From NCBI GenBank assembly GCA_045544855.1, contig JAZPZV010000010.1:8410-72409 (forward strand): a stretch of DNA of 64,000 nucleotides, read 5' to 3'. Source of the stretch: Eubacteriales bacterium (GTDB taxonomy: Bacteria; Bacillota; Clostridia; Oscillospirales; CAG-382). The position numbers and the translations under genes are program-made. The notes beneath the pieces are model-generated. The model was not told the origin of the DNA and searched no databases. It worked only from the letters and a program-made list of their open reading frames with translations. Position 1 is the stretch's first letter. The number at the start of each line of letters is the position of its first letter. This document shows, piece after piece, positions 105-16,007 of the stretch.

Positions 105-773
105 ATGTTCCGATTCGATACCCACGTTCACACCGACGAGACCTCCCATTGCGGCAAGGTGCCTGCAAGGGAGATGGTGAAGCTGTACGCAGAGGCGGGC
201 TATTCCGGCTTTGTGATGACGGATCACTTCAACCGCTACTCCATGAAGGTTCACGGTTGCGAGACCCCCGAGGAAGAGGTGGAGACCTTTTTGAAGGGCT
301 ACCGCGCCGCCAAGGCCTACGGAGACGAGATCGGCTTTGACGTGCTGTTCGGCATGGAGCTTCAGCCCGACGGTGCCTATAACGAGTATCTGCTGTACGG
401 TCTTACCGAGGAATTTTTCTGCGCTCATCCCCATATTTATGAAGAGGATCTCCTGACGCTCCGCCGCTTGGCAAACGAAAACGGTATCCTCATCTTCCAG
501 GCCCATCCCTACCGCCCGGGGCTCACCCGTGCCATGCCCGGCTTTCTGGACGGGGTGGAGGTGTTCAACGGCAACCCCCGCCACAACTCCCAAAACCACC
601 TGGCGTTGATGTACGCCACTCAGCATAAGCTGTTGCAGTGCAGCGGCTCGGATGCCCATCAGGTGGAGGATATCGGCAGGGGCGGATTGCTCACCCGGGA
701 AAGGATCACCGATCTTGCTACTTTGAAGAAGATCCTGAAGGAGGGGAGCGCGGAGCTGATCCGCAACAATTAA
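105..773 (+). CDS. PHP-domain metal-dependent phosphoesterase
   Basis: 222-aa ORF. N-terminal FDTHVHT..SHCG motif, later HPYRP and GSDAH motifs typical of the PHP fold. Confidence 0.85.
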   Translation: MFRFDTHVHTDETSHCGKVPAREMVKLYAEAGYSGFVMTDHFNRYSMKVHGCETPEEEVETFLKGYRAAKAYGDEIGFDVLFGMELQPDGAYNEYLLYGLTEEFFCAHPHIYEEDLLTLRRLANENGILIFQAHPYRPGLTRAMPGFLDGVEVFNGNPRHNSQNHLALMYATQHKLLQCSGSDAHQVEDIGRGGLLTRERITDLATLKKILKEGSAELIRNN

Positions 774-797
774 TTTTACGAAAGGAATGGAAAACCC

Positions 798-1004
798 ATG
801 GGAAAATTTCTGCGCCGATTGCTTTTGGCGTTTCTGCTGGTCGTCCCCTACCGCCTGGACCGTAAGGTAAAAGGCGGGTTCGTCCTGCGGGCGGTGCTCT
901 ACGAGGTGGATTGCACCAAGGACGGGGAGGAGAACCACTACGAGATCTCCATTCTGAAGATCCTTTCACGGCAGATCAAGCTGCTGAAAAAACTGTTCGC
1001 ATAA
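798..1004 (+). CDS. small hypothetical protein (68 aa), hydrophobic N-terminus
   Basis: AAAGGAA RBS-like element 8 nt before the ATG. Followed directly by a strong terminator. No recognisable family. Confidence 0.45.
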   Translation: MGKFLRRLLLAFLLVVPYRLDRKVKGGFVLRAVLYEVDCTKDGEENHYEISILKILSRQIKLLKKLFA

Positions 1005-1007
1005 CCG

Positions 1008-1058
1008 AAAAAACCACTCTGCGGTACGAAACGTACTTTGCAGAGTGGTTGTTTTTTT
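1008..1058. terminator. bidirectional intrinsic terminator
   Basis: 11-bp stem AACCACTCTGC / GCAGAGTGGTT flanked by an A-tract and a T-tract, between convergent genes. Confidence 0.75.
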
Positions 1059-1064
1059 GCTGTC

Positions 1065-3425
1065 TCAAGCGGGGAAGGCATAAGTGCCCAGCACTACACG
1101 CTTGATCTTGATGTAATCCATGGCGGAGATATTGACGCCGTTGGTGATGGCGGCTGCGCGGACGGCTATGGCGGAGGGGGTGTAGGTCTTCAGCACGGAG
1201 CGCTTGGCCATCATGTAGTCCAGAGCGGTTACGGCACCGTCTCCGTTCATATCTCCCTTCACCACCGCAAGGCGGGTATAGATCACCGTCTGCCCGATGT
1301 AGAAGCGGATCTCATCCCCCGTATGAAGAACGTCCGTTGCCGTCAGCTCCGTACCGTCGGTGCGGAAGATCCGCACGTGACGCTCAAAGCCCTGCAAGAA
1401 GGTCTCCAGGGTGGTGCCCGCAGGGATGTCCACCACGTAAAGCTCCTCCACGGGGTAAAGATCGGAGGTGGGAGGAGGGGGATCTACGGGAACGTCCACA
1501 GAGCCGATGAGCAGAATGTATTCCGCAGAGACGTAGCCTTCCATTTCTTCATCCTGATAGGTGAAGCGGATGTGATACCAATCGGTATAGACCTCCTCGC
1601 TTTCCACGTGGATCGGGCCTTCCAGGATCAGCACTCGGGTACCGTTGCCCAGCTTGGCGATCTTTTCGCCGGTGGTGCCAGGGGTCTCGCGGACGTTCAG
1701 AGAATCCTCCACTTCCACCTGCCCCAGGGGATAGGTGATCACGTCGCCGCTTTCCTCGCTTGAGGTATCCTGCGATGGATCGTCGGAAGGCTCTTCCGAA
1801 GGATCGTCGGAGGGTTCGGGTTCATCCTCGGAGCTATCCTGCGAGGGATCGGAAGTATCGTCGGGAGGGGAGTCGGGGTTGGTGAAGTTGGTGGAATAGC
1901 AGTATCCCTCCATGGGAACGCCTTCGATCACCGCAAGGATCTGATACCAGCCCGTGCCGTTATCCAAAATCAGCTTCACTTCCTCCCCTTTGCGGATCAG
2001 CCCCAGCTTGTCCGCCCCCGAAACGGGTTCGGCGCGGAGATATACGTTTTGGGAGGCGACCAGGGTGGTATAGGCCGCAGAGCCTACGTATACGGTAACG
2101 TTCAAAGCAACCGTACCGTCAAAGGCCAGAGAGATCATGGCCAAGCCCTCACTGATGGCGGCAACGTTGCCGTTGGCGTCCACCGAGGCTACGGAGCTGT
2201 TGGAGGAGCGCCAGGTCATGGTCTTGGCCTTCAGCTCGTCCGCATAGATCTCCACGGGAAGATGGAAGGCCTCGCCGGGATCAACGTGGAACACGGTGGT
2301 AGGAGTCCCCACCGAAAGGCGGGCCGCTTCGCTGATATGGATATTGGCGGCGGAAGCGTAGCCGCTGATAGGCGTTTTTTTGCTGCCCACGCGGGCAGAA
2401 ATAGCGTAATAGGTAATGCCGTCCGCGTCGGTGTAAACCGTTTCGCTGTTCACCTTCACAGGCTGTCCGCGTACCAGCTTCCCCAGGGTGTTGGAATCCG
2501 AAGAGGGCTCACTGAAGATGGCCAGGCTCTGGTTCATTACCTGGGCGTTGGTGTCCACGCAAACGATGGAGCAGGCTTCCTTGCCGTTGTAAACGGCGGT
2601 GATCAGGGTGTAGCCCTGTCCCACGGCCTTGATATTGCCCTGATGATCCACCGTTGCCACGGTGGGGTCGGAGCTGGTCCACACCACGTCCAGAGAAGCC
2701 TCCGTGGGGGGATAGGCGGTGGCGGTCAGGGTGTCCGTTTCTCCCAGGGCAAGATCCACGCGGGAACGGTCCATGATCATGCCGAAGACTCCGTTTTTGT
2801 CCTTTTTCACTTCGTCCAATTGGTCAAACCCGTAGGAGGTGATGAACTTGATCAGATTGATGGCGTATTCCTCTCCGGAACAGTAGCCGGAGGTTACCAA
2901 GGCGTAGGCGGCTTCCTCGTAATTCTTGGCGTCCAGCACGATGTCGTAACGGTCGTAGCGCAGCAGCAGATCGGAGTGGTCTGCAATAGATTCCTCCAAA
3001 GAGTCGTAAGCCCGCCACAGGCTGGCTTTTTTTGCGTAGGCTTCCCCTTTGATGTTCACAAGGTCGGCGTAGCTGTTGTACACGATATCGTCCTTGTGGT
3101 CAAAGACCTTTCCGCTCCAGGTGTGCATTTTGATGCCAAAATGGTTCTGGGCGATGATGGAGATGGGGTAGCCTCCCGCACCCCCTTCGTAGAAGAACTG
3201 CCCTGCGGTAATGGAGGGAAGAACGCCCGTGTCAAAATAATCCTTTAAGGAAACCGACATCACCGTGCGGCAGAGGTAATACTGCCAGGTGTTCAGCTTG
3301 GTTTCGATCAAGGAGTAATCCAGGGCGCTCACCGTCTCCCCACGGGAAAAGGCGGGAACGGAAAGCAGGATACATATGGAAAGAAGTATGGCGGCGAATC
3401 GGGTCGCCATTCTTTTGATAGGCAA
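1065..3425 (-). CDS. secreted GH73 N-acetylglucosaminidase-type cell-wall hydrolase with Big_2, SH3-like and C-terminal dockerin modules
   Basis: 786 aa with a signal peptide (AAILLSICILLSVPAFS). GH73-like region YEGGAGGYP...EEAAYALVTSGYCSGEEY. Two TLTATAYP/ITAVYNG Ig-like Big_2 units and several SH3b-like units (GWYQILAV, DWYHIRFTY). Acidic PS/DE linker. C-terminal GDMNGDGAVTALD dockerin Ca-loop. TTG start with GAGGAA RBS. Confidence 0.85.
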   Translation of the reverse strand: MPIKRMATRFAAILLSICILLSVPAFSRGETVSALDYSLIETKLNTWQYYLCRTVMSVSLKDYFDTGVLPSITAGQFFYEGGAGGYPISIIAQNHFGIKMHTWSGKVFDHKDDIVYNSYADLVNIKGEAYAKKASLWRAYDSLEESIADHSDLLLRYDRYDIVLDAKNYEEAAYALVTSGYCSGEEYAINLIKFITSYGFDQLDEVKKDKNGVFGMIMDRSRVDLALGETDTLTATAYPPTEASLDVVWTSSDPTVATVDHQGNIKAVGQGYTLITAVYNGKEACSIVCVDTNAQVMNQSLAIFSEPSSDSNTLGKLVRGQPVKVNSETVYTDADGITYYAISARVGSKKTPISGYASAANIHISEAARLSVGTPTTVFHVDPGEAFHLPVEIYADELKAKTMTWRSSNSSVASVDANGNVAAISEGLAMISLAFDGTVALNVTVYVGSAAYTTLVASQNVYLRAEPVSGADKLGLIRKGEEVKLILDNGTGWYQILAVIEGVPMEGYCYSTNFTNPDSPPDDTSDPSQDSSEDEPEPSDDPSEEPSDDPSQDTSSEESGDVITYPLGQVEVEDSLNVRETPGTTGEKIAKLGNGTRVLILEGPIHVESEEVYTDWYHIRFTYQDEEMEGYVSAEYILLIGSVDVPVDPPPPTSDLYPVEELYVVDIPAGTTLETFLQGFERHVRIFRTDGTELTATDVLHTGDEIRFYIGQTVIYTRLAVVKGDMNGDGAVTALDYMMAKRSVLKTYTPSAIAVRAAAITNGVNISAMDYIKIKRVVLGTYAFPA

Positions 3426-3456
3426 GATGATTCCTCATTTCTGGTTTTACAAAGCC

Positions 3457-3486
3457 ATTATACCATAGGGAAGGGAAGCTTGTCAA
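3457..3486 (-). promoter_or_regulatory. sigma-A-type promoter of the GH73 hydrolase gene
   Basis: On the minus strand: TTGACA (3486-3481), 18-nt spacer, TATAAT (3462-3457). Confidence 0.55.
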
Positions 3487-3551
3487 CACGTGACAGAAAA
3501 TATATTTTATTGGCAAAAAGCGGAAGTTTTGTGGCTTGGGTGGATTTTCGT

Positions 3552-3595
3552 GGGATTTTCTTCGGAAAAAAGCGGGATTTTCTTCGGAAAAAGAC
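3552..3595 (+). repeat. tandem 22-bp direct repeat GGGATTTTCTTCGGAAAAA(agc) x2, plus a partial third copy at 3541
   Basis: Identical 19-mers at 3552-3570 and 3574-3592, ending 4 nt before the -35 of the terS promoter. Confidence 0.85.
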
Positions 3596-3598
3596 GAG

Positions 3599-3627
3599 AT
3601 GACAAACGAAAAAATGCATGGTAAGAT
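3599..3627 (+). promoter_or_regulatory. sigma-A-type promoter of the phage-like module
   Basis: ATGACA (3599-3604), 17-nt spacer, TAAGAT (3622-3627). AAAGGAGG RBS lies before the ATG at 3679. Confidence 0.5.
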
Positions 3628-3678
3628 GTTTCACGTCGAAGGCAGAAAGCCGGGGAAAAACAGCAAAGGAGGAAGCCT

Positions 3679-4089
3679 ATGAACAACACCTATTCCACGA
3701 ACAAGGATCCCACCCGCACAAGGACAGCGCGGGCGGTATTCTCCTCGGGAGAGGACTGCAAGGCCAAGCTGGAGCGGTATTTTGAAGAATACCTGCCTGC
3801 CAGCGGAGAGGTGGCTGATATTGAAGGGCTGGCGGATTTCCTGGGGATCACACGCAAGGATCTCATCGCCCTGACGGAGCATAAGACCTACGGGGTCTTA
3901 CTGCGACGGGCATGGAACCGCATTGCCAAGATCAAAAAACAGCTGGCCTTTCGGGGGAAGCTCCCCGCCGCAGTGCTTTCCTTTGATCTGAAGAACAACC
4001 ACGGGTACAGAGACCGACCGGAGGAGCAACAAGATGGCTCTGTTCCCGCAGTGATCTTTCAAGGTCGGGCGGGGGAGTGGGCGAAGTGA
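3679..4089 (+). CDS. phage terminase small subunit
   Basis: 136 aa. Has the LADFLGITRKDL HTH-like segment and the KNNHGYRD C-terminal region typical of terS. Sits immediately upstream of terL. Confidence 0.8.
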   Translation: MNNTYSTNKDPTRTRTARAVFSSGEDCKAKLERYFEEYLPASGEVADIEGLADFLGITRKDLIALTEHKTYGVLLRRAWNRIAKIKKQLAFRGKLPAAVLSFDLKNNHGYRDRPEEQQDGSVPAVIFQGRAGEWAK

Positions 4090-5441
4090 TGGGCAGCGCC
4101 AAGGAGATCCTCATCACTCCCAACCCAAAACAGCAAAGCTTCTTTGAATCCACAGCCCGCTACACCGCTTACGGAGGAGCGCGAGGCGGCGGAAAAAGCT
4201 GGGCCATGCGCATGAAGCTGGTGCTGTTGGCGCTGGGCTACGAAGGGATCCAGATCCTTTTGTTGCGCAGAACCTTGGGAGAATTGAGAGAAAACCACCT
4301 GTTTCCCTTGCTTTCCCTGTTGGACGGCGTGGCCAGGTATGCCTCCACCGAGAAGGAATTTCGATTCCCCAACGGTTCTCGCATACGGCTGGGCTATTGC
4401 GACACGGAAAACGACGTGTTGCAGTTTCAGGGGCAGGCCTACGAGGTCATCGGGCTGGAGGAAGCCACCCATTTCACCGAAGGGCAGTTTTCCGCTCTCA
4501 CCGAGAGCAACCGCTATTCGGGGATGATGAAGGTACCCTTCCGCCCAAGAATGTATTTCACCTGCAATCCCGGAGGTGTGGGGCATGACTGGGTCAAACG
4601 GTTATTTGTGGACAGATGCTACCGCACCGGGGAAAAGGCAGAGGATTACGTGATGATCAAAAGCCTTGTCTTCGACAACACCTTTCTCATGGAACGGGAT
4701 CCGGAATACGTACAGACCTTGATGGCGTTGCCGGAAGCCCGACGGAAGGCCATGCTGTACGGGGATTGGAACGCCTTTGAGGGGGCGTTCTTCCCGGAAT
4801 TCGACCCGGAGATCCATACCTGTATGGACTTTTCGGTGCCCAAGGAGTGGATCCGTTTCCGTGGGTTGGATTACGGGCTGGACATGACCGCCTGTCTTTG
4901 GTTTGCGGTGTCAAGCGACGGGACGGTGTACGTCTACCGTGAGCTTTACGAAAAGGATCTCATCCTTTCGGAGGCGGGAAAGCGGATCGCACAGGCAAGC
5001 CCCGAGGAGGGGAGCATCCGCTACACCGCCGCCTCCCCCGACCTTTGGAACCGCAGGCAGGACAGCGGAAAAAGCGGATTCGATCTTTTGCACGGAGCGG
5101 GAGTGAGCCGATTGATCAAGGCCAACAACGCCCGCATCCCGGGCTGGCGGGTCATACGGGAGTATCTCCGCCGACGGGAGGACGGAACGCCGAGATTGGT
5201 GATCTTCCGCTCTTGCAAAAATCTTATCCGCACCCTGCCTCTGCTGAGGTTCGACACCAACGTCATCGAGGATGCGGCGGACACCCCTCACGAGATCACC
5301 CACGCCCCCGAGGCGTTGCGCTACGGGCTCATGTCCCGTATGCCAAAGCCCGTGCCCAAGGCTGTGCCCTTCCGATCTGGGCTTTACACCTTCGACAAGA
5401 TTCCCAAGGAGGAGGGGTACGGACAATTCATCGCATACTAA
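4089..5441 (+). CDS. phage terminase large subunit
   Basis: Walker A GGARGGGKSW and a nuclease-type C-terminal half. Start taken at the ATG overlapping the terS stop (TGATG); an alternative ATG lies at 4077. Confidence 0.9.
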   Translation: MGSAKEILITPNPKQQSFFESTARYTAYGGARGGGKSWAMRMKLVLLALGYEGIQILLLRRTLGELRENHLFPLLSLLDGVARYASTEKEFRFPNGSRIRLGYCDTENDVLQFQGQAYEVIGLEEATHFTEGQFSALTESNRYSGMMKVPFRPRMYFTCNPGGVGHDWVKRLFVDRCYRTGEKAEDYVMIKSLVFDNTFLMERDPEYVQTLMALPEARRKAMLYGDWNAFEGAFFPEFDPEIHTCMDFSVPKEWIRFRGLDYGLDMTACLWFAVSSDGTVYVYRELYEKDLILSEAGKRIAQASPEEGSIRYTAASPDLWNRRQDSGKSGFDLLHGAGVSRLIKANNARIPGWRVIREYLRRREDGTPRLVIFRSCKNLIRTLPLLRFDTNVIEDAADTPHEITHAPEALRYGLMSRMPKPVPKAVPFRSGLYTFDKIPKEEGYGQFIAY

Positions 5442-5459
5442 TGAAGGAGACCAACAACT

Positions 5460-7025
5460 ATGTTCCGAAAACAAAAGCCCTATACGGAAGAGTGGCAGCT
5501 CTACGAAAAGGGCAAGGAATACCATTATTCCATTGGACTTTACGATAAAGTCAACACCAACGAGCGGTTCTACCGCGGGGATCAGTGGGACGGCATTCAG
5601 GCAGGGGGCTTGCCCACTCCTGTGTTCAACATCTTCCGCCGGATCATCGATTTCTTTACCTCCTCGGTGCTGGCAGGAGCGGTGAAGCTCCGCTTCTCTT
5701 CGGAAATGCCCACCGCTTCAGGGAGCGGCAAGGCGGAGACCGACACCACGGAAAAGCTGAACCGCATTGCGGATTTCCGCTGGGACAAGCAGAAGATGGA
5801 CGCTTTGCTGGCAAACGCCTTGCGGGACGCCGCCATTACGGGGGATGCGGTGTGCTACACCTATTGGGATCCCTCGGTACGCACAGGGCAGGCCTTTACC
5901 GGGGATTTCGTCAGCGTGCTGGTGGATAACACCAACGTGTTCTTCGGCAACCCCAACAGCAAGAACGTGGAGAAACAGCCCTACGTCCTCATCTCCATGC
6001 GGGAAACGGTGGAGGATCTCCGTGCCCAGGCCAGATTAAATGGCAGGGACGAGGAGGAGATCCGCAAGATCCTTCCCGACGACGACACTGCTCACGAAAG
6101 CGGCGATCTTGCCAAGAAGGAGCTGGAGAACACCCGCTGTATCGCCCTCATCAAGCTCTGGAAGGGGGAGGACGGCAGAGTCCGCTTCCGCAAATCCACA
6201 AAGAACGCCGTGATCAAGGAGGAAACGGATCTGGGTCTTTCCCGCTATCCCCTGGCGGTGATGAACTGGACTCCCGTGAAGAATTCCTGGCACGGTCAGG
6301 GGGTGGCCACGGGGCTCATCGAAAACCAGATCTTCATCAACAAGGGCTTTGCCATGGTGATGAAGCACATGATGGATACCGCCTTCTCCAAGGTGGTGTA
6401 CGACTCCACGGTGATCGACCAATGGTCCAACCGTGTGGGGGAGGCGGTGGCGGTCAACGGTCCCGTGGAAAGCGTGGCAAAGGTGTTGTCCTCCGGGCAG
6501 ATGCAGTCCGGGATGCTGGACGTGATCAACCTTGCCATCTCCGCCACCAAGGAGTTTATGGGAGCTACGGATACCGCTTTGGGAGACGTGCTTCCCACCA
6601 ACACCTCCGCCATTCTGGCGTTGCAGAAGAGCTCCTCCGTTCCCCTGGAGGGGGTGAAGAGAGCTCTGTACCAGTTCGTGGAGGATATCGGTCTGGTGTG
6701 GCTGGACTTCCTCTTTGCCTACTACGACGATGCCCGTCTGGTGCCCGTGGGTGCAGAGGGTAAGATCGACTACCTGCCCTTTATGATGTCCTCTCAGAAG
6801 GACAAGCTGTACGGCTGCCGCGTGGACGTGGGCGGCGGCAGTTACTGGTCGGAGGTGTCCACCCTGAACACCTTGGACAACCTTTTGAAGCTGGGTAAGA
6901 TCACCATGTCCCAATACCTTGAGCGTCTTCCCGACGAGCTGATTCCCAAAAAGCGGGAGCTGTTGGAGGAATGCAGAGCAGCGGAAGCGCAACAGACAGA
7001 AATCATCCAAGAAGAAAGGATCTGA
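5460..7025 (+). CDS. phage portal protein
   Basis: 521 aa located directly after terL. N-terminal YxxG..Y..N.RFYRGDQW portal-type motif and an acidic C-terminal tail. Confidence 0.85.
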   Translation: MFRKQKPYTEEWQLYEKGKEYHYSIGLYDKVNTNERFYRGDQWDGIQAGGLPTPVFNIFRRIIDFFTSSVLAGAVKLRFSSEMPTASGSGKAETDTTEKLNRIADFRWDKQKMDALLANALRDAAITGDAVCYTYWDPSVRTGQAFTGDFVSVLVDNTNVFFGNPNSKNVEKQPYVLISMRETVEDLRAQARLNGRDEEEIRKILPDDDTAHESGDLAKKELENTRCIALIKLWKGEDGRVRFRKSTKNAVIKEETDLGLSRYPLAVMNWTPVKNSWHGQGVATGLIENQIFINKGFAMVMKHMMDTAFSKVVYDSTVIDQWSNRVGEAVAVNGPVESVAKVLSSGQMQSGMLDVINLAISATKEFMGATDTALGDVLPTNTSAILALQKSSSVPLEGVKRALYQFVEDIGLVWLDFLFAYYDDARLVPVGAEGKIDYLPFMMSSQKDKLYGCRVDVGGGSYWSEVSTLNTLDNLLKLGKITMSQYLERLPDELIPKKRELLEECRAAEAQQTEIIQEERI

Positions 7026-7027
7026 AT

Positions 7028-7570
7028 ATGAAAACCGTAAATAACGAACAAGTGCTGGACGTGGTATACGATCTGGCCTCCGCCATGGGCTTGCGCATCG
7101 GAGAGTTTCTGGAGCGTTTGCAGGCGGATTACGGCGACCCCGCCATTGACACCGCAGGCTTGCCCGAGGAGGTGGTGGCAGAGCTGGAAAACGCCAAGGC
7201 CTTGCGCAAGGAAAGCAGGGAGGCCAAGCGCAAGCAGGAGATGGCGGACAAGCAGAACAAGGAGATCTCCGCCTTCCGCGCCCAGTTCCCCGATCTGCCC
7301 GCCGCCGAGATCCCCGAGGAGGTTTGGGCAGAGGTTGCCTCCGGCATGGACCTTCTCCACGCCTACGCCTTTTATCTCATGACCAACGGCAAGAAGGGTA
7401 CCCGTGCCGAGGACGTGAACAAGGGCAATCTGGCAAGAAGCGCCCCCGCATTGGGAGAGGGAAGCACCGAGCCCTCCTTCACCCGTGAAGAGGTGGAGAG
7501 AATGTCCCAGAAGGACGTGAAGAAAAACTACAAGAACATCCTGCGCTCTATGGGCAAATGGAAGCTTTGA
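7028..7570 (+). CDS. phage scaffolding protein (putative)
   Basis: 180 aa, highly charged and helical, positioned between portal and capsid. ATG at 7028 lies just after the portal stop. Confidence 0.6.
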   Translation: MKTVNNEQVLDVVYDLASAMGLRIGEFLERLQADYGDPAIDTAGLPEEVVAELENAKALRKESREAKRKQEMADKQNKEISAFRAQFPDLPAAEIPEEVWAEVASGMDLLHAYAFYLMTNGKKGTRAEDVNKGNLARSAPALGEGSTEPSFTREEVERMSQKDVKKNYKNILRSMGKWKL

Positions 7571-7598
7571 TCACTACTTAAAAAGGAGAAATCGAACA

Positions 7599-8420
7599 AT
7601 GGCAAATTACAACAGCATTGAAAAGATCATCAGCGCGGAGATCATCCGCACCAACGAGGACAACCTGCTGGCGAACACCATCTGCAACACCGCCTTCGTG
7701 GGGGACATCAAGAACAAGGGGGATTCCGTCACCTTCATCGGTCTGAACGATCCCGCCGTGTACGACTACGACGGCAGTCTCACCTACGAGGACATCGACG
7801 ACCACGCCACCACCCTGTACGTGGATCAGGACAAGGCTTTTTCCTTTAAGGTGAAGGACATCGAGGAGCTTCGTTCCTCCATCGGTCTTGCGGACAGCCA
7901 GACCAAGAGAGCCAGCTACCTGCTGAGAAACCAGGTGGATACCTACGTCTTCGGCCTCTACGGCGACGCGGGCGTTTCCATGGAGGAGACTGAGGTCACT
8001 CCCGAAAACGTTCTGGCGGTGGTCACCGCCATGAAGCAGAAGCTGGAGGAGGCAAACGTCCCCGACGGCAGAACCTGGATCGTGGTGCCTCCCTTCATCA
8101 AGTCTAAGCTGCTTCTGGCAGGCGTTAAGTTCCAGATCAACAACGGCGTCAACGGCACCGGTGCGGTGGGCTTCACCGACGAGCTGGGCTGTGACGTGTA
8201 CGTGTCCAACCAGCTTGCCACCGAGGACGGCAAGACCATGATGCTGGCAGGCTCCTACTCCGCCATCGCTTATGCGGAGCAGGTGCTGGAGACTCAGGTC
8301 ATCGACCGCATGGAGGGCTCCTTCGACAAGGCTGTGAGAGGCCGTCTGGTCTTCGGTGCCAAGGTCATCAAGCCCGAAGAGCTGGTTTGCTGTCCCGTTA
8401 CCGACGGCGCCAACGTATAA
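7599..8420 (+). CDS. phage major capsid protein (short P22-coat-like/HK97-fold type)
   Basis: 273 aa with a GGAGAAATCG RBS. Position after the scaffold gene. Sequence resembles short coat proteins of Firmicutes phages. Confidence 0.75.
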   Translation: MANYNSIEKIISAEIIRTNEDNLLANTICNTAFVGDIKNKGDSVTFIGLNDPAVYDYDGSLTYEDIDDHATTLYVDQDKAFSFKVKDIEELRSSIGLADSQTKRASYLLRNQVDTYVFGLYGDAGVSMEETEVTPENVLAVVTAMKQKLEEANVPDGRTWIVVPPFIKSKLLLAGVKFQINNGVNGTGAVGFTDELGCDVYVSNQLATEDGKTMMLAGSYSAIAYAEQVLETQVIDRMEGSFDKAVRGRLVFGAKVIKPEELVCCPVTDGANV

Positions 8421-8447
8421 ACATCGTTTTGAAAGGAGAATCAGAGC

Positions 8448-8798
8448 ATGACTTTGAACGCAACCTACATCCACAAGAACTTTGCCCCCTCCCAGGTGGC
8501 ATTTACCCCCATCACCCAGGGCGACTGCACCGTGGATCTCACCGACTGCAAGGAAGAGCCCATTCTGTTGGTGGACACCTCCGCCTGCTCCGGTGACGTT
8601 ACCCTGACCATGGCGGTAGGGGATTACGCCTCTGCAAGGATCATCCCCGCCATCACTCTTCCCGCGGGAGGCGTGGCCATGGTTCCCGTTTCCACCGGCG
8701 AGGTGATGCAGGCAGACGGCTGTCTCCATCTTACCTTCGCCTCCTTCAGCGGTGCTGCCGCCGCCGTGCTGAAGAAGCGCTACGTGACCAATCATTGA
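8448..8798 (+). CDS. hypothetical phage head-associated protein (116 aa, beta-rich)
   Basis: AAAGGAGAA RBS. Lies immediately after the capsid gene and before an internal terminator. Confidence 0.6.
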   Translation: MTLNATYIHKNFAPSQVAFTPITQGDCTVDLTDCKEEPILLVDTSACSGDVTLTMAVGDYASARIIPAITLPAGGVAMVPVSTGEVMQADGCLHLTFASFSGAAAAVLKKRYVTNH

Positions 8799-8805
8799 TG
8801 AAGCG

Positions 8806-8843
8806 AAGGGGCGGGCTTGACAGTCCGCCCCTTGCCCTTTTTT
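8806..8843 (+). terminator. internal intrinsic terminator within the phage-like operon
   Basis: 9-bp GC stem AAGGGGCGG / CCGCCCCTT followed by GCCCTTTTTT. Confidence 0.65.
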
Positions 8844-8860
8844 GAAAGGAGGAAGAAAGG

Positions 8861-9256
8861 TTGAAAGCAAAGGAAATTTTTGAACAGGCCATGGATCTTT
8901 GCGCTCTGCGAGGAAGCAACGGAGACGGCGACCCCTATTTGCCCTCCGACGTGGACGATCTGGGGGTTCGTGCCGTGGGCATTCTGAACGTGCTCATGGG
9001 AGAATTGCACCCGTTGGAAGAGCGTTTGACAGGGAAGGAGCGTCCCTACGCCCGCATCTACGGGCTGGAGGAGACGGTGGATCTCTGCGAGGGCATCTGC
9101 CGTTGCGTATTGCCCTACCGTCTGGCGGCTCTTTTGGTGGCAGAGGAGGACAGGGAGCTTTCCGATCTGCTTCGCCACCACGCCTCGGAGGCGGCCAAGG
9201 GTCTGCTGGCTGACGGTGCCTCCCGGGTACACACCATTCTGGAGGTGTATCAATGA
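8861..9256 (+). CDS. head-tail connector/adaptor-like protein (putative)
   Basis: 131 aa, helical. TTG start 8 nt after the GAAAGGAGG RBS. Its stop overlaps the next start (ATGA). Confidence 0.5.
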   Translation: MKAKEIFEQAMDLCALRGSNGDGDPYLPSDVDDLGVRAVGILNVLMGELHPLEERLTGKERPYARIYGLEETVDLCEGICRCVLPYRLAALLVAEEDRELSDLLRHHASEAAKGLLADGASRVHTILEVYQ

Positions 9257-10959
9257 AGGAACGGATGACGGTGACGGAGTTTTTCGGGCTGGACGAGCGG
9301 CAGGTGTTCTCCCGGGATCTTTCCCGCTCACCGGATATGCGCAACTTCAAGGTGACGGAAAACCGTACCCTGCAAAAGCGGGGAGGCATCGCCGCGGCAT
9401 TCACCGCACCCCAAGAGATCGACGGGTTTTGGTGCGGCTATCTCAACGGGACGGAATATCTGCTTTACCCGGCAGGGGGGACGTTATACGCCGTGACGCG
9501 GGACAGCGAAACTCCCCGGGCGGTGGGGAACGTGGGCGAAGGAAAGCACACCATGTTCTCCTTTGCGGGGAGGGTGTATATGAAAAACGCCGCAGGCTAT
9601 TACCGCTTTGACGGCACGGGAGTGGAGGAGGTGGAGGGATATATCCCTTTGGTGGCCATCGGCTGTGCTCCCGACGGCGGAGGAAGCAATTTCGAGGACG
9701 TGAATATGCTTACCTCCAAGAGAAGAGTCCGCTTTTCCTGCGATGGGGAGGCTAAGACCTTCACCCTGCCGGAGAGAGAGCTTGCGGGAATCGTTTCCAT
9801 CACCATGAACGGGGTGGCCTATCCCTTGCCCTACAACGCCGACCTTGCCGCGGGAACGGTGACCCTGGACACTCCCCCCGTGCAAGGCTTTGATAACCTG
9901 GAGATCATCTACGACAAAGGAAGCGACCGCAGAGAGGTGATCCTGAAGGCCGACGGGGTGATGCTCTTCGGAGGCGATACCGACGGACACGTGTTTTTGT
10001 GGGGAAATCCGGACTATCCCGCCTACCGCTTCCATTCCGAGCTGGCAGACGGTCAGCCCTCGGCGGAATACTTCCCGGAAAACAACTACACCATCATCGG
10101 AAGCTCTCCCATTACGGACATCATCTCCCAGTACGACCGCCAGCTGATCTTTACCAAGGAGCGTGCGTACTATTCCTACTGTCAGCTGTTGACCGGGGTG
10201 GACGGACATCTGTACGCCTCCTTTCCCGTGTATAACCTGAACGGGGAAAAGGGAAGCTTGCTTTCCGGGGCGGGCTGTATCATGAACAACGAGCCTGTGA
10301 CGCTGTGCGCCGATGGGTTGAACTATTGGCAATCCACGGCGGTGGAAAACGAAAAGAACGCAGTTTGCTTCTCCGCCCCGGTGGGGAAGACTTTGCGCAG
10401 GGTGCTGGCCTCGGGGGATCTTGATCACCTGCGGCTGTACAACCACCGTGCAGCAGGGGAGCTGTACCTTATCTGCGGTGAGGTGGCGTTGATCTACAAC
10501 TACAAGCTGGGGGTCTGGTACGCCTACGACAATTTTGAGGCGGAGCATCTCGGGGAGTTCGGAGGCAACTTGTATTTCACCCGAGGGAATCGGGTGCTGT
10601 ATCTGGATCCCGATGCGGCCTACGACGAAGACGGGATCATCAAGGCCTATTGGGAATCTCCCAAAACGCCTCTGCAATCCGACGGCAAGCGGAAGCGCCT
10701 GTCGGAGATGGCCTTGGAGCTTCACACCGCAGGAGAGCCCATTCTGGACGTGATCTACGGCGAGGACATGGAGCACGGGGTGGTCTTGAACCCCAAGCAT
10801 GAAGGGGAAGGCCTTTTGGATCTCCATTTCCGCACGGGGGCTTTGCGGTGCTCCCGTTTGGGGATCCGCTTCCAGGAGCAGGACTATGCTCACAATGAAC
10901 TAATTTCCATGACCTTGGTCTATGGAAGGAAAGGACGATATGAAAGAAACGGAATATAA
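9253..10959 (+). CDS. large phage structural protein of unknown function (568 aa)
   Basis: Beta-rich with repeated aromatic/Gly motifs (YYRFDGTG, LYAVTRD, LYFTRGN). Translationally coupled to its upstream neighbour. Confidence 0.6.
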   Translation: MKERMTVTEFFGLDERQVFSRDLSRSPDMRNFKVTENRTLQKRGGIAAAFTAPQEIDGFWCGYLNGTEYLLYPAGGTLYAVTRDSETPRAVGNVGEGKHTMFSFAGRVYMKNAAGYYRFDGTGVEEVEGYIPLVAIGCAPDGGGSNFEDVNMLTSKRRVRFSCDGEAKTFTLPERELAGIVSITMNGVAYPLPYNADLAAGTVTLDTPPVQGFDNLEIIYDKGSDRREVILKADGVMLFGGDTDGHVFLWGNPDYPAYRFHSELADGQPSAEYFPENNYTIIGSSPITDIISQYDRQLIFTKERAYYSYCQLLTGVDGHLYASFPVYNLNGEKGSLLSGAGCIMNNEPVTLCADGLNYWQSTAVENEKNAVCFSAPVGKTLRRVLASGDLDHLRLYNHRAAGELYLICGEVALIYNYKLGVWYAYDNFEAEHLGEFGGNLYFTRGNRVLYLDPDAAYDEDGIIKAYWESPKTPLQSDGKRKRLSEMALELHTAGEPILDVIYGEDMEHGVVLNPKHEGEGLLDLHFRTGALRCSRLGIRFQEQDYAHNELISMTLVYGRKGRYERNGI

Positions 10960-12073
10960 TTCTTGGCTGGAAGAAGCCAAAACGGCGCTGGATACCTTTT
11001 CCGCAGGGCAGGAGGAGCTGGCAAAGCTGTATCAGCAGGCCATGGCCAACGCCAAAACGGAGCATGAAGCCCAAAAAGAACAGCTTGCAAAGGACACCGT
11101 TGCAAGCAAGAACCAAGCGGTGGTGGACAATGCAAAGACGGAAAGAGATCTGGACCGCACCCTTGCCTCCCGGGGGCTGTCCTTTTCCGGGGAGAACGCC
11201 CAGACGGGGCTGGATCTGGCCTTGGATCTGCGGAGTCGTCTGGCGGAGCTGGATGACAAGGAGGACCGTCTTTCCGCCGAGCTGGACGGTAAGCACAACG
11301 ACACCCAAACCAAACTGGCCATGGAGTATGCCGAAACGCGCTCCGCAGGGGCGGAAAAGCTTGCGGATATGATGCTGGGGATGGCGGCTGTTTCTCCCGA
11401 GGCCCCCTCGGAAAACGGACCCGCTACCCCCGAGACGGCTCCCGAGCCGGACAATCTCTACGGCATTCCCATGCCCGACCTGACGGGGCTGAGCTTCTCC
11501 GCACGGGTCAAGGCCATGGCGGAGTACGCTACGAAGGTGCAGGCGGCAAAGGAGCTGGCGGAGAAATTCACTCCCACCGTTTCCGCCAAGGAGCTGGCAA
11601 AGCAGTTGGTCTCCGTGGCGGGGGAGAACGGGATCGTCGGTAGCATCGCCCAGCAGGAGACCTTGGAGACCATGCTTTCTAAGCTGTTGGAGGCCCACGA
11701 CCTTTCTCCCACGTATCTGGAGGAATTGATGCTGAACCTGCGTTCCCTGGGCTACCGTCCCGATTACCGCGAGGACGTTGCCTACGGTATGGAGGATCTG
11801 CAGAACCGCTCCGTGGAGGCGAGAGACAGCTATTACGAACGCTACTACCGTCTGTACCGCTCCGCAGGCTACGAGCCCGAGGAAAGCGACCGTCTGGCGG
11901 CAGAGCAGGCGCTGTTCCTGCAGTTCGTGTTCCTCTACCGCAACAGCAGATCCAAGGAGATGTTCGAGACCGCCATGAGCGGCCTGGGCTACCGCAAGGA
12001 GCTGGATGACTTTTACGGGGCCATCTCCAAGGACCCCGACAAGTACGGTCTGGGCTCTTCCTTGGAGAAGTAA
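10940..12073 (+). CDS. phage structural protein with N-terminal coiled coil (377 aa)
   Basis: GGAAGGAAAGGA RBS before the ATG at 10940. Heptad-rich N-terminal half, AP/E linker, and a Tyr/Arg-rich C-terminal domain. Confidence 0.55.
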   Translation: MKETEYNSWLEEAKTALDTFSAGQEELAKLYQQAMANAKTEHEAQKEQLAKDTVASKNQAVVDNAKTERDLDRTLASRGLSFSGENAQTGLDLALDLRSRLAELDDKEDRLSAELDGKHNDTQTKLAMEYAETRSAGAEKLADMMLGMAAVSPEAPSENGPATPETAPEPDNLYGIPMPDLTGLSFSARVKAMAEYATKVQAAKELAEKFTPTVSAKELAKQLVSVAGENGIVGSIAQQETLETMLSKLLEAHDLSPTYLEELMLNLRSLGYRPDYREDVAYGMEDLQNRSVEARDSYYERYYRLYRSAGYEPEESDRLAAEQALFLQFVFLYRNSRSKEMFETAMSGLGYRKELDDFYGAISKDPDKYGLGSSLEK

Positions 12074-12080
12074 AGAAAGG

Positions 12081-12386
12081 ATGGACGTTATGGAACTGAT
12101 GGAATTTCTCCGCCCCGAGCTGGCGGTGCTGGTGCCCGTGCTTTACGTTTTGGGCGTGGTGCTCAAAAAGAGTCCCTTGCAGGATTGGCTGATCCCCTTC
12201 GTGCTCTGCGTGGCAGGGTGCGTGCTGTCCTTCCTGTATCTGGTGTCCTTGGGGGTGGATTCTCCCGCAGATTGGCTGTCGCTGACCTTTTCCGCCATCA
12301 CCCAAGGGGTGATCTGCGCCGCCTGCAGTGTGTACGCCAAAAATCTGATCAAGCAGGCAAAGGAGGGGATGGACCGTGAAACGTAG
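12081..12386 (+). CDS. phage holin (three predicted TM helices)
   Basis: 101 aa with AAAGAAAGG RBS. TM segments LAVLVPVLYVLGVVL, LIPFVLCVAGCVLSFLYLV and LTFSAITQGVICAACSVYA, followed by a charged C-terminal tail. Confidence 0.7.
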   Translation: MDVMELMEFLRPELAVLVPVLYVLGVVLKKSPLQDWLIPFVLCVAGCVLSFLYLVSLGVDSPADWLSLTFSAITQGVICAACSVYAKNLIKQAKEGMDRET

Positions 12387-12458
12387 ATGGTTTGACCTGC
12401 CCGTAAAGCTTTACCGTGCTTTGTACGAAGCTTTGTTTTTCTGCCTTTACGGCGCGGA

Positions 12459-12776
12459 ATGACGGGGGAGATCTACGAGCTGTTGGCGGTGTTCTTCTCC
12501 TCGGCAGGGGTGCTGGGCACAGCCGTCTCCGCCGTGCTGGCCCATATGCTCCGCCGTGCCAAAAAGGATGCGGAGCAAAAGCGCAAGGAGCGGATCGCCC
12601 TGGAGCTTTACCGCTTGGAGGGGGAAGAATTGCTTTCCGCATTGGTGCTGGCCTTGGTGCGGGCGGGGGACGCCCAAGACCCCACCTTGGAGACGGCGGC
12701 CAAGGCCTATGAACAGCATTGGGAAAAGCGAAAGCATTTCTGCAACGAGTTTATCACCAAGCACACCGCCGTGTAA
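12459..12776 (+). CDS. small membrane protein (N-terminal TM plus charged helix)
   Basis: 105 aa. TM segment LLAVFFSSAGVLGTAVSAVLA followed by a basic RRAKKDAEQKRKER helix. Last gene before the terminator. Confidence 0.5.
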   Translation: MTGEIYELLAVFFSSAGVLGTAVSAVLAHMLRRAKKDAEQKRKERIALELYRLEGEELLSALVLALVRAGDAQDPTLETAAKAYEQHWEKRKHFCNEFITKHTAV

Positions 12777-12782
12777 CCTATG

Positions 12783-12820
12783 GAAAGAAGGTTCTCCAAA
12801 AGGCCTTCTTTCTTCTTATA
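12783..12820 (+). terminator. intrinsic terminator ending the phage-like module
   Basis: Stem GAAAGAAGG / CCTTCTTTC followed by a T-rich tail. Confidence 0.6.
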
Positions 12821-12836: not shown

Positions 12837-12865
12837 TTGACATTTTTTGGAGAATCTGGTATAGT
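12837..12865 (+). promoter_or_regulatory. sigma-A-type promoter of the large lipoprotein gene
   Basis: TTGACA (12837-12842), 17-nt spacer, TATAGT (12860-12865). Confidence 0.65.
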
Positions 12866-12908
12866 AGAGTTACCAAGTCGAAATCAAAACAGAAGGGAGT
12901 ATTCTTTT

Positions 12909-15713
12909 ATGAAGAAAACCCTGTTATGCTTGATGATCGCTTGCGCATTCCTTTGCGTATTGGTCTCTTGTACCGCCTCTCCCGAGGAGAGTGCGCCTGC
13001 TTCCTCTTCGGCAGACTCCGTGGCGGAATCTATGCCTCCCGCAGAGGAATCCGTATCCTCCGAGCCGGAAGCAAGTGAACCCGAGGCCAGCGAACCCGAA
13101 GCAAGCGAGCCCGAGATCAGCGAACCCGAGGTCAGTGGACCCGAGGTCAGCGAGCCCGAGGTCAGCGAGCCCGAGGTGAGTGAACCCGAAGTAAGCGAAC
13201 CCGAAGTAAGTGAACCCGAGGTCAGCGAACCCGAAGTAAGTGAACCCGAGGTCAGCGAACCGGAAACGGTATTTGCGGAGAACGTAGAGATCTCCTCTTC
13301 CAAGGAAGAACTGTATCCCGGCGAAACTGCCACCCTCACCGTTACGGTGACCCCCGAGGAAGCCACCGACAAGAGCGTGATTTGGGAAATCGACTCCGGC
13401 AGTGAATACGCTACTCTCTCTGCCGACGGTGTGCTCACCACCAAGGCGGCAGGCACCGTGGTGGTCAAGGTCACCACCAAGGATGGCTCCGACATATCCG
13501 CATTCTATACGATTACTGTGAAGGCTGTTCCCGCTTCCTCTATCACCATCAGCGGTGACAAGGAAGTGACGGCGGGCGGCCGGATCACCCTCACTGCCAC
13601 CGTGAAGCCGGAGGATGCTGACAAGGGCGTGGTTTGGACTGTTGAATCCGGAGAGAAGTTTGCTTCTATCTCTGCAGATGGCGTTCTCACTGCGGTCGCT
13701 CCCGGTGAAGTGGTGGTCAAGGCCACCGCAAAGGATGGCTCCGGTGTGTCCGCCACCTATACCGTTACCGTGAAGCCTGTTTTGGTGACCTCCATCACCA
13801 TCAGCGGCAACACCACCGTGGAGGAGGGTAAGACGGTTACTCTGTCTGCCGCCGTGAAGCCCGACAACGCCACCAATAAGGGCGTGACTTGGTCTATCGA
13901 ATCCGGCAGCAAGTATGCTTCCATCTCTGCCGACGGTGTTCTGACGGCGAAGGCCGCAGGTAAGGTCACCGTAAAAGCCACCGCAAAGGATGGCTCCGGT
14001 GTGTCCGCCACCTATACCGTTACTGTGAAGCCTGTTTTGGTGACCTCCATCACCATCAGCGGCAACACCACCGTGGAGGAGGGTAAGACGGTTACTCTGT
14101 CTGCCGCCGTGAAGCCGAGCAATGCTTCCAACAAGGAAGTCACTTGGTCTATCGATTCCGGCAGCAAGTATGCTTCCATCTCTGCCGACGGTGTTCTGAC
14201 GGCGAAGGCCGCAGGTAAGGTCACCGTAAAAGCCACCGCAAAGGACGGCTCCGGTGTTTCTGCGACTTATACCGTTACCGTAAAGGCGGGTGCTATGTGG
14301 GAAGGGGAAGGCACCAAGGCCAATCCGTTCCTCATTAAGAACCTTACCGATCTGAAAAATCTGCAGAAGGTGGTGGACAAGAAGGGCTATTACTTCCTGC
14401 AGGTTGCGGATATTGACTGTTCTTCCGTGGAGACCTGGATCGTCATCGGTACCGATGAAAATCCCTTCCGCCATCACTACGACGGCGGCGGATACACCAT
14501 CAAGGGTCTGCATTTTGCAGGTGAGACCGGCGGGTTGATCACCGTTGCGGAGGACGCCACTTTCCGTGATATCCATATCGAAAATGTCACCGCAAGGGAC
14601 GTACAAGCATACCTTGGCTCCATAGTAGGCTACGGCATCAACTGCTCCTTCTATGGTTGCAATGCCAAAGTGGATTTCAGCGGGTCGTACCCCAACGTGG
14701 GCGGTATCGTCGGCTACGTGGTGCTGAACGAAAACCAGACGGTATTGATGGAAAACTGCCATGCGGAGGGTACCATCGACGGCGGTGCCTATAGCGGCGG
14801 CTTGATCGGACATATTTACAAGTATTACGAAAATAACGAAACTCCCGAAGAACCCAAGGCGGCGGTGACCGATTGCTACGCCAACGTGGAGATCTCCGTG
14901 CTTGGCGGTGCCGGTGACGGCGCCAATGCGGGCGGGCTCATCGGTTGCTCCAACGGCGTGAAGATCCATCATTGTCATGCCACGGGCAACGTGATTGCTA
15001 AGTTTGAATACTTGGGCGGCTTGGTGGGGCAATCCGGCTACGCTTGCGAGATCGCCTACTGCTACGCCACGGGAGACGTGACCTGCACCTCCGACGATCA
15101 GTACGGCGGCGCCTTTGCAGGGGGCTTGGTAGGGTATATGTTCAGCGATACCCACGTTCACGATTGCTACGCCACGGGAGATATTTCCGCTCCCGACGTG
15201 GGTTGGAGCAACTGTCAGGATAAGCCTTCCATGGACGGCGGTCCTTGGCTGAACTACCGCAATCCCTGCGGCTCCTTGATCGGTTGCATCCACGTGATCG
15301 GTCAAAGCTACAAGATGGAGCTTTACAACTGCTACGCCACGGGCACGGTGTATGCGCCCAAGATCTGCGAGGATGACCGCGTTTACTGCCACGGTGCAGT
15401 GGTAGGGTGTATCTACGACCACGTCACCCGCCGCAACGTCATCGACAAGAGCAAGTACGATCAGACCGATTGGGCAGGCTTCAGCGAACTCCCCTTTACA
15501 CGGTTGGAGAGCTGTTTCAACGTGGAGGCTTTGCGTACCTACTTCCGGCCCATCACCGAGTTTACCAGATCTTCCCAGCGCAAGTACGAAATGCCCATCC
15601 ACGAATACGTTACCATCGTCACCACCACACAACTGAAGGATCAATCCGTCTTTGAGGGCTGGGACTTCCAAAACGTGTGGATCATGGGCGAAAACGGACC
15701 CGAGCTGCGATAA
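12909..15713 (+). CDS. large surface lipoprotein: (SEPEV)n linker, four Big_2 Ig-like domains, C-terminal GLUG-motif repeat region
   Basis: Lipobox LVSC. 14 tandem SEPE[AIV] pentapeptides. Four ~84-aa Big_2 units (TLTxTVxPE..VxWxxx[13 protein letters not shown]). C-terminal repeats of GGLIG/GGLVG with CYATG/CHATG. Confidence 0.85.
13059..13268 (+). repeat. in-frame 15-nt tandem repeat (14 units) encoding SEPE[A/I/V]
   Basis: Units such as GTCAGCGAGCCCGAG repeat head to tail with synonymous variation. Confidence 0.95.
13751..14260 (+). repeat. near-identical 255-nt tandem duplication (two Big_2 domains)
   Basis: CGCCACCTATACCGTTAC...GGTGACCTCCATCACCATCAGCGGCAACACCACCGTGGAGGAGGGTAAGACGGTTACTCTGTCTGCCGCCGTGAAGCC occurs at 13751 and again at 14006. 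Confidence 0.9.
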
Positions 15714-15785: not shown

Positions 15786-15940
15786 GTGAAGTTTTCGCTT
15801 TTTGCGAAAGTGAAGTTACGCAAAGAATCGTTTGCGCAGTGAAGTTCGTCTGAACGTCGAGTGAAGTTCAGTTTGCCCGCTTTGCCGAAGGCAAAACTTC
15901 ACGTTCTGCAGGAACACTTCACTTTCGCAGAAAACTTCAC
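15786..15940. repeat. array of the 8-mer GTGAAGTT (4 direct copies, then 3 inverted) separating short variable hairpins
   Basis: GTGAAGTT at 15786, 15810, 15839 and 15861. AACTTCAC/ACTTCAC at 15895, 15916 and 15933. A 14-bp inverted repeat pairs 15803-15816 with 15916-15929. Confidence 0.85.
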
Positions 15941-16007
15941 TTGCCCCAAGGGGGCAAACTTAGTTTCTTTGCGTCTGAAAAGACGCAAAGCGGCTTCCTT
16001 TTTGCTC

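Follow-up and report, generated by a model that had tools for sequence, protein, structure and literature searches.

Gene transfer agents (GTAs) of a podovirus-like kind have been known since 2026 through FpGTA of Faecalibacterium (Nat Commun 2026, PMC12946183). FpGTA is the closest characterised analogue of the locus described here, a 9-kb block of phage-type genes (hereafter the module) in a 64,000-nt stretch of DNA from a Eubacteriales bacterium (contig JAZPZV010000010.1). This whole stretch is referred to as the window, all positions are given as numbered there, and "L" numbers designate loci of relatives. We consider it likely that the module is a GTA-type operon for podovirus-like particles that the host has domesticated and maintains; our confidence is higher than this for domestication as such, and lower for actual gene transfer.

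In the FpGTA study, the DNA of intact virus-like particles from human faeces was subjected to Nanopore sequencing, and GTA-like packaging of short pieces of the chromosome was observed for Faecalibacterium and Gemmiger (8.4–8.9 kb), Ruminococcus callidus (4.6 kb), CAG-115, Onthomonas and Christensenellaceae (PMC12946183). For the packaging seen in other Ruminococcaceae, Oscillospiraceae and Christensenellaceae, the locus was not identified there, and homologues of FpGTA were reported within Faecalibacterium only (PMC12946183). FpGTA is encoded by a 10.5-kb operon I of ten open reading frames (ORFs) and an unlinked operon II with fibre, receptor-binding protein (RBP), holin and endolysin genes; the particles of F. 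prausnitzii have capsids of ~40 nm and ~9-kb DNA, and operon proteins were detected inside (PMC12946183). The order of operon I was deduced from the successive accessions RCH50852 to RCH50844, as annotated for strain ATCC 27766 (supplementary proteomics table, PMC12946183). After terS, it comprises TerL (RCH50852), the portal (RCH50851), "Prp" (RCH50850), a major capsid protein (MCP) of the "N4-gp56 family" (RCH50849), two ORFs, a "tail nozzle (PDB 8eap)" (RCH50846), one further ORF and an abundant "TolA" (RCH50844) (PMC12946183). The authors left undecided whether the particles deliver DNA or act in a PBSX-like manner (PMC12946183).

Compared by annotation, the layout of the module is near-identical to that of operon I, FpGTA having one extra ORF before the helical protein. 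The FpGTA nozzle and a 568-aa protein of the module both match PDB 8eap, and the Ala/Glu/Lys-rich, helical "TolA" corresponds by position to the 377-aa protein encoded here. Kept intact through vertical inheritance in many gut Clostridia, the module most likely makes GTA-like particles resembling FpGTA. An earlier reading made from the DNA letters alone (the sequence-only reading) had suggested that a GTA-like element would be undescribed for this lineage, a claim that FpGTA overturns (PMC12946183). A similar 12.7-kb cluster in Butyricicoccaceae is the subject of a July 2026 preprint, whose authors hesitate between a GTA and a capsid-forming satellite. Two properties that define GTAs were found for the module: it is a chromosomal, phage-derived cluster of structural and packaging genes without replication, integration or excision genes of its own, and its structural genes show vertical inheritance and purifying selection.

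Gene content and predicted short tail

Eleven tightly packed co-directional genes on the forward strand occupy positions 3679–12776 according to the ORF listing and profile searches. This agrees with the sequence-only reading, and the roles it had given to terS, terL, portal, capsid and holin are supported by profile matches. The 136-aa TerS (3679–4089) is of the P22 gp3 type (PF16677 GP3_package, E 7e-9; phrog_606). It is followed by the large terminase subunit TerL (450–454 aa, 4077–5441; phrog_979, E 3e-49; Terminase_3 and Terminase_6N) and by a 521-aa portal of the P22/SU10 podovirus type (5460–7025; PF16510 P22_portal and PF23899 SU10_portal). The 180-aa protein encoded between portal and MCP (7028–7570) is a putative scaffolding protein, with a weak match to phrog_14606 (E 7e-5); the same PHROG is found in the same slot in a true podophage of ~40 kb (L100, see below). 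The MCP has 273 aa (7599–8420; phrog_267, E 1e-38; PF25209 Phage_capsid_4). From its position after the MCP, the 116-aa protein (8448–8798), which has no profile match, may be a head decoration or head-completion protein; this slot is variable among species, being filled by the small-protein clusters c17, c22, c46 or c65. At the other end of the operon lie a 98-aa holin of the Hol44 family (12090–12386; PF16079 Phage_holin_5_2, E 3e-21; phrog_1129) and a 105-aa protein with one N-terminal transmembrane (TM) helix and no profile match (12459–12776). The gene for the latter is kept beside the holin gene in most loci, and its product may be a lysis accessory.

The 568-aa protein (9253–10959) was modelled with AlphaFold2 (AF2) from 40 homologues (pLDDT 88.6, pTM 0.85), and the top 27 matches of the model in a Foldseek search of the PDB are podovirus tail nozzle or tail-tube proteins. 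The best nozzle structure is that of Pseudomonas phage Pa223 (E 1e-19), and cyanophage A4, VP1, Sf6, SU10 and T7 gp12 are also matched; for P22 gp10 (8eap_D), Foldseek gives E 6e-16 and TM-scores of 0.56/0.66. In sequence, the protein is ~26% identical to gp15 of phage Page, a "virion structural protein". The model thus assigns it confidently to the podovirus tail nozzles of the P22 gp10 / T7 gp12 class, and the encoded particle is predicted to be short-tailed, not tail-less. The sequence-only reading had called the module tail-less and devoid of tail genes; the label is wrong because the 568-aa protein is modelled as a podovirus nozzle, and what stands of the claim is that the operon contains no recognisable fibre or RBP gene.

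The two genes flanking the nozzle gene complete the putative tail. The 131-aa protein (8861–9256) is probably the portal–nozzle adaptor, as judged by its position: its gene is always directly upstream of the nozzle gene, both in module loci and in true phages. The gene order of P22 is 3-2-1-8-5-4-10-26, in which the gene for the adaptor gp4 precedes that for gp10. Searched against PDB sequences, the 131-aa family returned designed coiled coils only and no significant match to a solved structure. The AF2 model of the 377-aa protein (10940–12073) is all-helical, with a long N-terminal hairpin, a disordered Ala/Glu/Lys-rich linker and a helical C-terminal domain, and the alignment shows an invariant LASRGLxFSGExAQ motif in the loop of the hairpin. 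It is also the fastest-evolving module protein (21–71% identity across species loci). Structure and PDB searches gave no significant match for it. Its gene holds the position of P22 gp26 (needle/plug) or of an ejection protein, and a role as plug, needle or ejection protein may be proposed on that basis.

Upstream of terS, the sequence-only reading had placed a sigma-A promoter at 3599–3627. The site exists (ATGACA-17-TAAGAT), although it is weak: it has 9/12 consensus matches, with an extended −10 TG and a weak −35. Just upstream of the −35 lies a tandem repeat (3552–3592) of two copies of GGGATTTTCTTCGGAAAAA (3552–3570 and 3574–3592) with a 22-bp period, each holding a TTTTC-N4-GAAAA palindrome. 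The window contains exactly two matches to GGGATTTTCTTCGGAAAAA, solely upstream of terS, against 0.02 expected by chance. In seven related species with dS (synonymous divergence) of 0.2–1.0, the repeat copies are nearly unchanged (0–2 substitutions per copy), and the same seven-species alignment shows conservation of the −10 (TGGTAAGAT) and of the −35 region. The motif is confined to a close clade (9/62 loci). These tandem palindromic repeats are described here as a candidate operator or activator site. Within the operon, a strong intrinsic terminator or attenuator (8806–8833; 12-bp stem with 8 GC pairs, then a T run) separates the head genes from the tail genes, a feature absent from the sequence-only reading. 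It is much stronger than the terminator-like hairpin that closes the operon 3' of the last gene (12782–12813), where the sequence-only reading had also seen a terminator. In phage Page, terminators are annotated behind the major head gene (6513–6536) and behind the three small ORFs next to it (7742–7758). A strong promoter (11/12) at 12837–12865 serves the gene downstream and is independent of the operon.

The composition of the module is that of its host, as had been noted before from spot counts of GC. The GC content is 0.581 and that at third codon positions (GC3) is 0.759, compared with 0.573 and 0.736 for the host. Codon usage agrees too: relative synonymous codon usage correlates with that of the host at r 0.94, the host-versus-host value being 0.96, and is indistinguishable from that of nearby housekeeping genes.

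Distribution, co-divergence and selection

A scan for the portal over one genome per GTDB species found relatives in 124 species-level genomes, of which the best 80, with 52–98% identity, were retrieved. All 80 are metagenome-assembled genomes (MAGs) of Clostridia, Eubacteriales or Oscillospiraceae, mostly from animal or human gut and a few from groundwater or sediment. According to tblastn and ORF clustering, most of them carry the module at ~9.1 kb with the same gene order, and the median span from terS to the 105-aa gene is 9,088 bp. All nine core genes were seen by tblastn in 38 of the 55 fully covered loci; 14 of the 17 others miss just small lysis genes or the fast-evolving 377-aa gene, and the remaining three (L080, L081 and L084) are a terminase-less variant. 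The deeper-branching loci L079–L084 keep the portal, scaffold, MCP, small ORF, adaptor-like, nozzle and helical protein genes in this order, without adjacent terS/terL (e.g. L084, 9932–16321; L081, 9244–16284). Their flanks consist of host genes (ClpB-like ATPase, acyl-CoA synthetase, SpoU methylase, YitT, LysR and LigA). This suggests either a split multi-locus arrangement, recalling other GTAs, or a particle that lacks packaging.

The chromosomal site is shared as well. Of the 45 loci whose upstream sequence is long enough, 26 have hemW and lepA no more than 3.5 kb upstream of terS, and secDF, a DagK-type kinase gene and mtnA/B-like genes are found further upstream. The window holds dagK-secDF-lepA-hemW at 27–33 kb. 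For 22 taxa with 66–99.5% LepA identity, distances computed from portal and TerL track those of LepA (Mantel r 0.93, p=1e-4). Mean identities are 70% for TerL, 66% for the portal and 75% for the MCP, as against 50% for the neighbouring housekeeping protein HemW. The MCP is the most conserved module protein (67–99% identity in the main clade), and TerS is 43–92% identical across species loci.

Ratios of nonsynonymous to synonymous substitution rates (dN/dS) were computed by the Nei-Gojobori method against the six relatives that avoid both near-identity and saturation (L005–L008, L010 and L012). They are 0.02–0.35 for every module gene, except that the holin gives 0.46 in one comparison. The values of MCP, portal and terL are about 0.02–0.12 (terL 0.03–0.10), and terS, terL and portal are among the most strongly constrained genes (0.03–0.2). 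Conserved position and purifying selection had been named in the sequence-only reading as signs of domestication, and both were found. Taken together, the sequence data fit an old acquisition followed by vertical inheritance under purifying selection, because gene order, chromosomal site, co-divergence with LepA, dN/dS and host-like codon usage all point in this direction.

Ancestry, chromosomal context and rival explanations

The closest deposited phage is the Bacillus megaterium podophage Page (Pagevirus, 40 kb), whose portal is about 30% identical to that of the module. Page resembles the module in its homologous terL, portal and nozzle and in the order terS-terL-(ORF)-portal-scaffold-MCP-small ORFs-tail genes, and differs by its spikes, fibres and endolysin and by a full replication module. 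IMG/VR contigs of 25–55 kb reach ~40% portal identity (30–42% over Page and these podophages). One of them, L100, encodes a DnaB-type helicase, TerL, portal, a scaffold of the module's PHROG, an adaptor-like protein, additional structural proteins and an endolysin; its MCP is from another family, and its nozzle is fused to an amidase. By this gene content it is a genuine podophage. The ~40-kb podophages have tail spikes or fibres, an endolysin, regulators, and genes for recombination and for DnaB/DnaC/DnaD-type replication, all of which the module lacks; spikes or fibres, endolysin, replication and lysogeny genes contiguous with the head genes are likewise missing from the relatives. This podophage lineage is likely ancestral, the module being a reduced descendant of it. 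Short IMG/VR contigs with 58–71% portal identity contain the same compact module. One of them, L086 (IMGVR_UViG_3300025154_002811), has 9150 bp and covers exactly terS to the 105-aa gene, and MT836592.1 (L002; 9588 bp, from a human faecal sample) is a distant version of the module with a 31% identical portal. Short "viral" contigs of the L086 type are probably chromosomal operons mis-called as viral, and for L086 and MT836592.1 themselves either this or packaged copies may be considered.

In agreement with the sequence-only reading, neither the block nor the annotated parts of the window showed an integrase, a repressor/antirepressor pair or a replication gene; outside the block, these parts are ordinary chromosome. 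Neither were att-like direct flanking repeats found around the module, and tblastx against related phages confines phage similarity to 4047–10746 of the window. The proteins from 7-kb flanks of the module in the relatives were clustered to 146 representatives; among these, each integrase or recombinase family had at most one match, and the families listed are metabolic and housekeeping ones.

The sequence-only reading had regarded three scenarios as inseparable: a domesticated GTA-like particle, a satellite borrowing the tails of a helper phage, and the stump of a podovirus. Comparative data across genomes do separate them. Gene order, neighbourhood, co-divergence with LepA, selection and codon usage strongly favour the first. 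That the module is a capsid-forming satellite or another mobile island, which would need a helper phage to be induced and to obtain the rest of its tail, appears very improbable to us. Its gene content is superficially that of such satellites (terS, terL, portal, scaffold, MCP, connector-like proteins and no long tail), the preprint on the Butyricicoccaceae cluster considers a satellite-like nature, and IMG/VR lists short module contigs as "viral". However, satellites are patchy and mobile, while the module has a constant housekeeping neighbourhood, co-diverges with LepA and brings its own nozzle and holin. No integrase, excisionase, repressor/antirepressor pair, primase or replication origin region was found in or beside it, none recurs in the flanks of the relatives, and no att repeats were found. 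An ordinary defective podovirus prophage, decaying neutrally, is the least credible of the explanations and is effectively refuted by the selection and synteny data. The ancestry that the stump scenario proposed does hold, since descent from a ~40-kb podovirus lineage with loss of most of the genome is clear and the 568-aa protein is a predicted nozzle, but the state of the locus is not one of decay. A neutral remnant would not be expected to retain all eleven genes intact and in one order across dozens of species, nor to show dN/dS of 0.02–0.35, a capsid and portal more conserved than a housekeeping neighbour, a conserved promoter and operator, or fully host-like codon usage. Split genes, which speak for decay, occur in a few orthologues (L057, L069 and L036).

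A domesticated particle could also be kept for a purpose other than gene transfer, such as a killer or bacteriocin-like role (cf. PBSX), programmed lysis releasing extracellular DNA or public goods, or a decoy for related phages. The evidence for domestication applies equally to this explanation, the operon has no receptor-binding or fibre gene that was found, and the FpGTA authors themselves leave delivery versus PBSX-like action undecided (PMC12946183). We nevertheless regard it as unlikely. TerS, TerL and portal are strongly constrained (dN/dS 0.03–0.2), which argues that DNA packaging itself is selected; moreover, podovirus-type particles have no contractile killing apparatus, and FpGTA as the closest characterised analogue packages host DNA.

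Several observations weigh against the preferred reading of a domesticated particle operon of the GTA kind. Pfam and PHROG profile searches recognised no fibre, RBP or endolysin in the operon, and no fibre or RBP gene was recognised in the window either, which bears on DNA delivery in particular; fibre and RBP genes may be located elsewhere, as in operon II of FpGTA, the visible part of this genome being 64 kb. The 116-aa, 131-aa, 377-aa and 105-aa proteins have no family or fold match in the searches run. FpGTA has an N4-gp56 MCP and Prp as the spacer between portal and MCP, and the module proteins match neither NCBIfam model (no match at E<=0.05). The module of the window is not hemW-adjacent: it is inverted with respect to the hemW string, with ~9 kb of other genes between them, and this lineage has therefore rearranged the ancestral arrangement. 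The split genes concern the 568-aa gene in L057 (10151–10927) and L069 (14696–15769) and the portal in L036 (about 10001–11566), and may reflect local decay or assembly error. Finally, co-divergence and a shared site would in principle also be compatible with a site-specific element whose transfer among close relatives is rare.

The genes around the module are of the kinds expected in a chromosome and include a PHP-domain gene, an HTH_3 regulator, GH31, MoxR/DUF58, hemW, lepA, secDF, dagK, rplA, FTHFS and asd. On the minus strand at 1065–3425, divergent from the operon and with a perfect 12/12 promoter, a gene encodes a secreted peptidoglycan hydrolase of 786 aa (glucosaminidase, Big_2, SH3_3 and dockerin; Pfam and PHROG endolysin matches). 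It adjoins the module in L003–L013 and L068 (11–12 relatives) and is not beside it in more distant species; this association suggests that, within this clade alone, the enzyme may act with the holin in lysis. Between the PHP gene and the hydrolase gene, some relatives carry a 5.1-kb quorum-sensing-like cassette of two ABC transporters, a histidine kinase and a LytTR response regulator (L003, 1–4533; L005, L006 and L008, about 470–5600), which is absent from the window (1058–1065) and from L007, so that near-identical strains differ. The LytTR two-component system was considered as regulator of the operon and is retained as a weak lead only: the cassette is missing from the window, and the operator units are palindromes, not direct repeats of the LytTR type.

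Downstream of the operon (12837–15713, +) lies the gene for a secreted surface protein of 958 aa with four Big_2 domains and GLUG motifs, with its own near-consensus promoter and a signal peptide. It contains a 15-nt (5-aa) tandem repeat tract at 13016–13294, and in other species the slot after the module is variable, being occupied by other large surface proteins or esterases. This protein was rejected as a tail fibre, as its PHROG "tail" matches are to Ig domains only, it has its own promoter and signal peptide, and it is present in the closest relatives only. The next two genes on the forward strand, with a promoter at 16008–16036, are the c13/c19 pair, encoding a 178-aa membrane-anchored protein (16027–16563) and a ~517-aa protein (16560–18113). 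The latter is highly conserved (63% mean column identity, with many invariant residues), and no Pfam, PHROG or PDB match was found for the pair. It is limited to one large sub-clade downstream of the module and was thus not counted as part of it. The minus-strand ORFs at 15937–16800 and 16545–18467, whose conservation was seen in tblastn, were dismissed as antisense shadows of these two genes. Further downstream are the gene of a 23S rRNA intervening-sequence protein (19384–19860) and, adjoining it, a cluster of seven tRNA genes on the minus strand (19964–20683: Gly-GCC x2, Asp-GTC x2, Thr, Cys and Phe; with exact duplicates). A 753-aa leucine-rich-repeat protein (LRR_4/LRR_8; 45177–47438, −), encoded amid housekeeping genes, is unrelated to the module.

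Possible function and comparison with known systems

The observations can be accommodated in a model in which a ~40-kb P22/Page-like podovirus would have been reduced to a single host-controlled operon in a large clade of Clostridia from gut and environmental sources (Oscillospirales-type MAGs), with an ancestral site just downstream of secDF-lepA-hemW. Such an operon would provide a full packaging motor (TerS/TerL), a small head, a minimal short tail, and a holin with a small membrane partner. A regulator acting at the tandem palindromic site by the weak −35 would switch it on in a subpopulation of cells, and the internal terminator at 8806–8833 would hold the tail proteins below the level of the head proteins. 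Scaffold-assisted procapsids would form on the portal in the style of P22, and TerS/TerL would load them, in headful fashion, with short stretches of the chromosome, of ~8–9 kb by analogy with FpGTA, which is too little for a self-sufficient element. The adaptor, the nozzle and the 377-aa protein would then close the portal. Upon permeabilisation of the membrane by the holin, a secreted or unlinked hydrolase, possibly the 786-aa glucosaminidase, would complete lysis and free the particles. For this organism, we infer particle production, random DNA packaging, regulation and DNA delivery alike.

A broader proposal is put forward only tentatively, as we are slightly more inclined to doubt it than to accept it. 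According to this proposal, the module would represent an ancient domestication at the level of a family or order, a minimal ~9-kb GTA operon at lepA-hemW in more than 100 Oscillospirales-type species, distinct from or ancestral to FpGTA, and would be the missing genetic basis of the packaging seen in gut Ruminococcaceae, Oscillospiraceae and Christensenellaceae. In the literature, no description was found of the lepA-hemW location, of co-divergence with the host or of a distribution over more than 100 species. If the operons are active, a large share of the abundant and mostly uncultured gut Clostridia would have a built-in device for generalised DNA packaging, and capsid-mediated gene flow without phage infection would be routine in gut and rumen communities. 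The combination of portal, 273-aa MCP and gp10-like nozzle beside lepA-hemW offers a compact marker for MAGs, where these genes are now "hypothetical" or mis-called as viral. For virome studies it calls for caution, ~9-kb "viral" contigs of this type probably being chromosomal operons. The module also provides a minimal parts list for a short-tailed DNA-packaging particle and, besides FpGTA, a second and deeply diverged data point on the domestication of podoviruses.

Among known systems, RcGTA of the Alphaproteobacteria is likewise a domesticated cluster of head, tail and packaging genes without replication or integration genes, inherited vertically under purifying selection. It is host-regulated, with lysis-dependent release, and the same would be expected for the module. 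It differs in its unrelated ancestry, its siphovirus-like long tail, its HK97-type protease and capsid, its host phylum and its experimentally proven function. Capsid-forming phage-inducible chromosomal islands (cf-PICIs) share with the module their own terS, terL, portal, scaffold and capsid genes and the lack of a long tail, but have an integrase, regulatory and replication modules, att sites, no tail-tip genes and a patchy distribution. PBSX of Bacillus is, like the module, a chromosomally fixed, phage-derived particle operon of a Gram-positive host with its own holin, and may package host DNA. Unlike the module, it is a myovirus-like element of ~28 kb whose tail is contractile and which has a repressor and a sigma factor of its own, and the search for a sequence relationship found only a distant terminase similarity (TIGR01547) below the cut-off.

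The greatest likeness is to FpGTA, which is podovirus-like, has no replication or integration genes and resides in a Gram-positive gut Clostridium of the Oscillospirales. The holin gene of the module is located inside the main operon, while holin and endolysin of FpGTA are encoded with the fibre genes in operon II. Particles and packaging have been seen for FpGTA, whereas the module is known from its genes alone. NCBIfam names, a search of a representative library and cluster look-ups linked no Faecalibacterium sequence to the module. Whereas FpGTA homologues have been reported from Faecalibacterium alone, the module family spans at least 124 species and has a conserved lepA-hemW site. The module appears to be a distinct and much more widely distributed relative of FpGTA.

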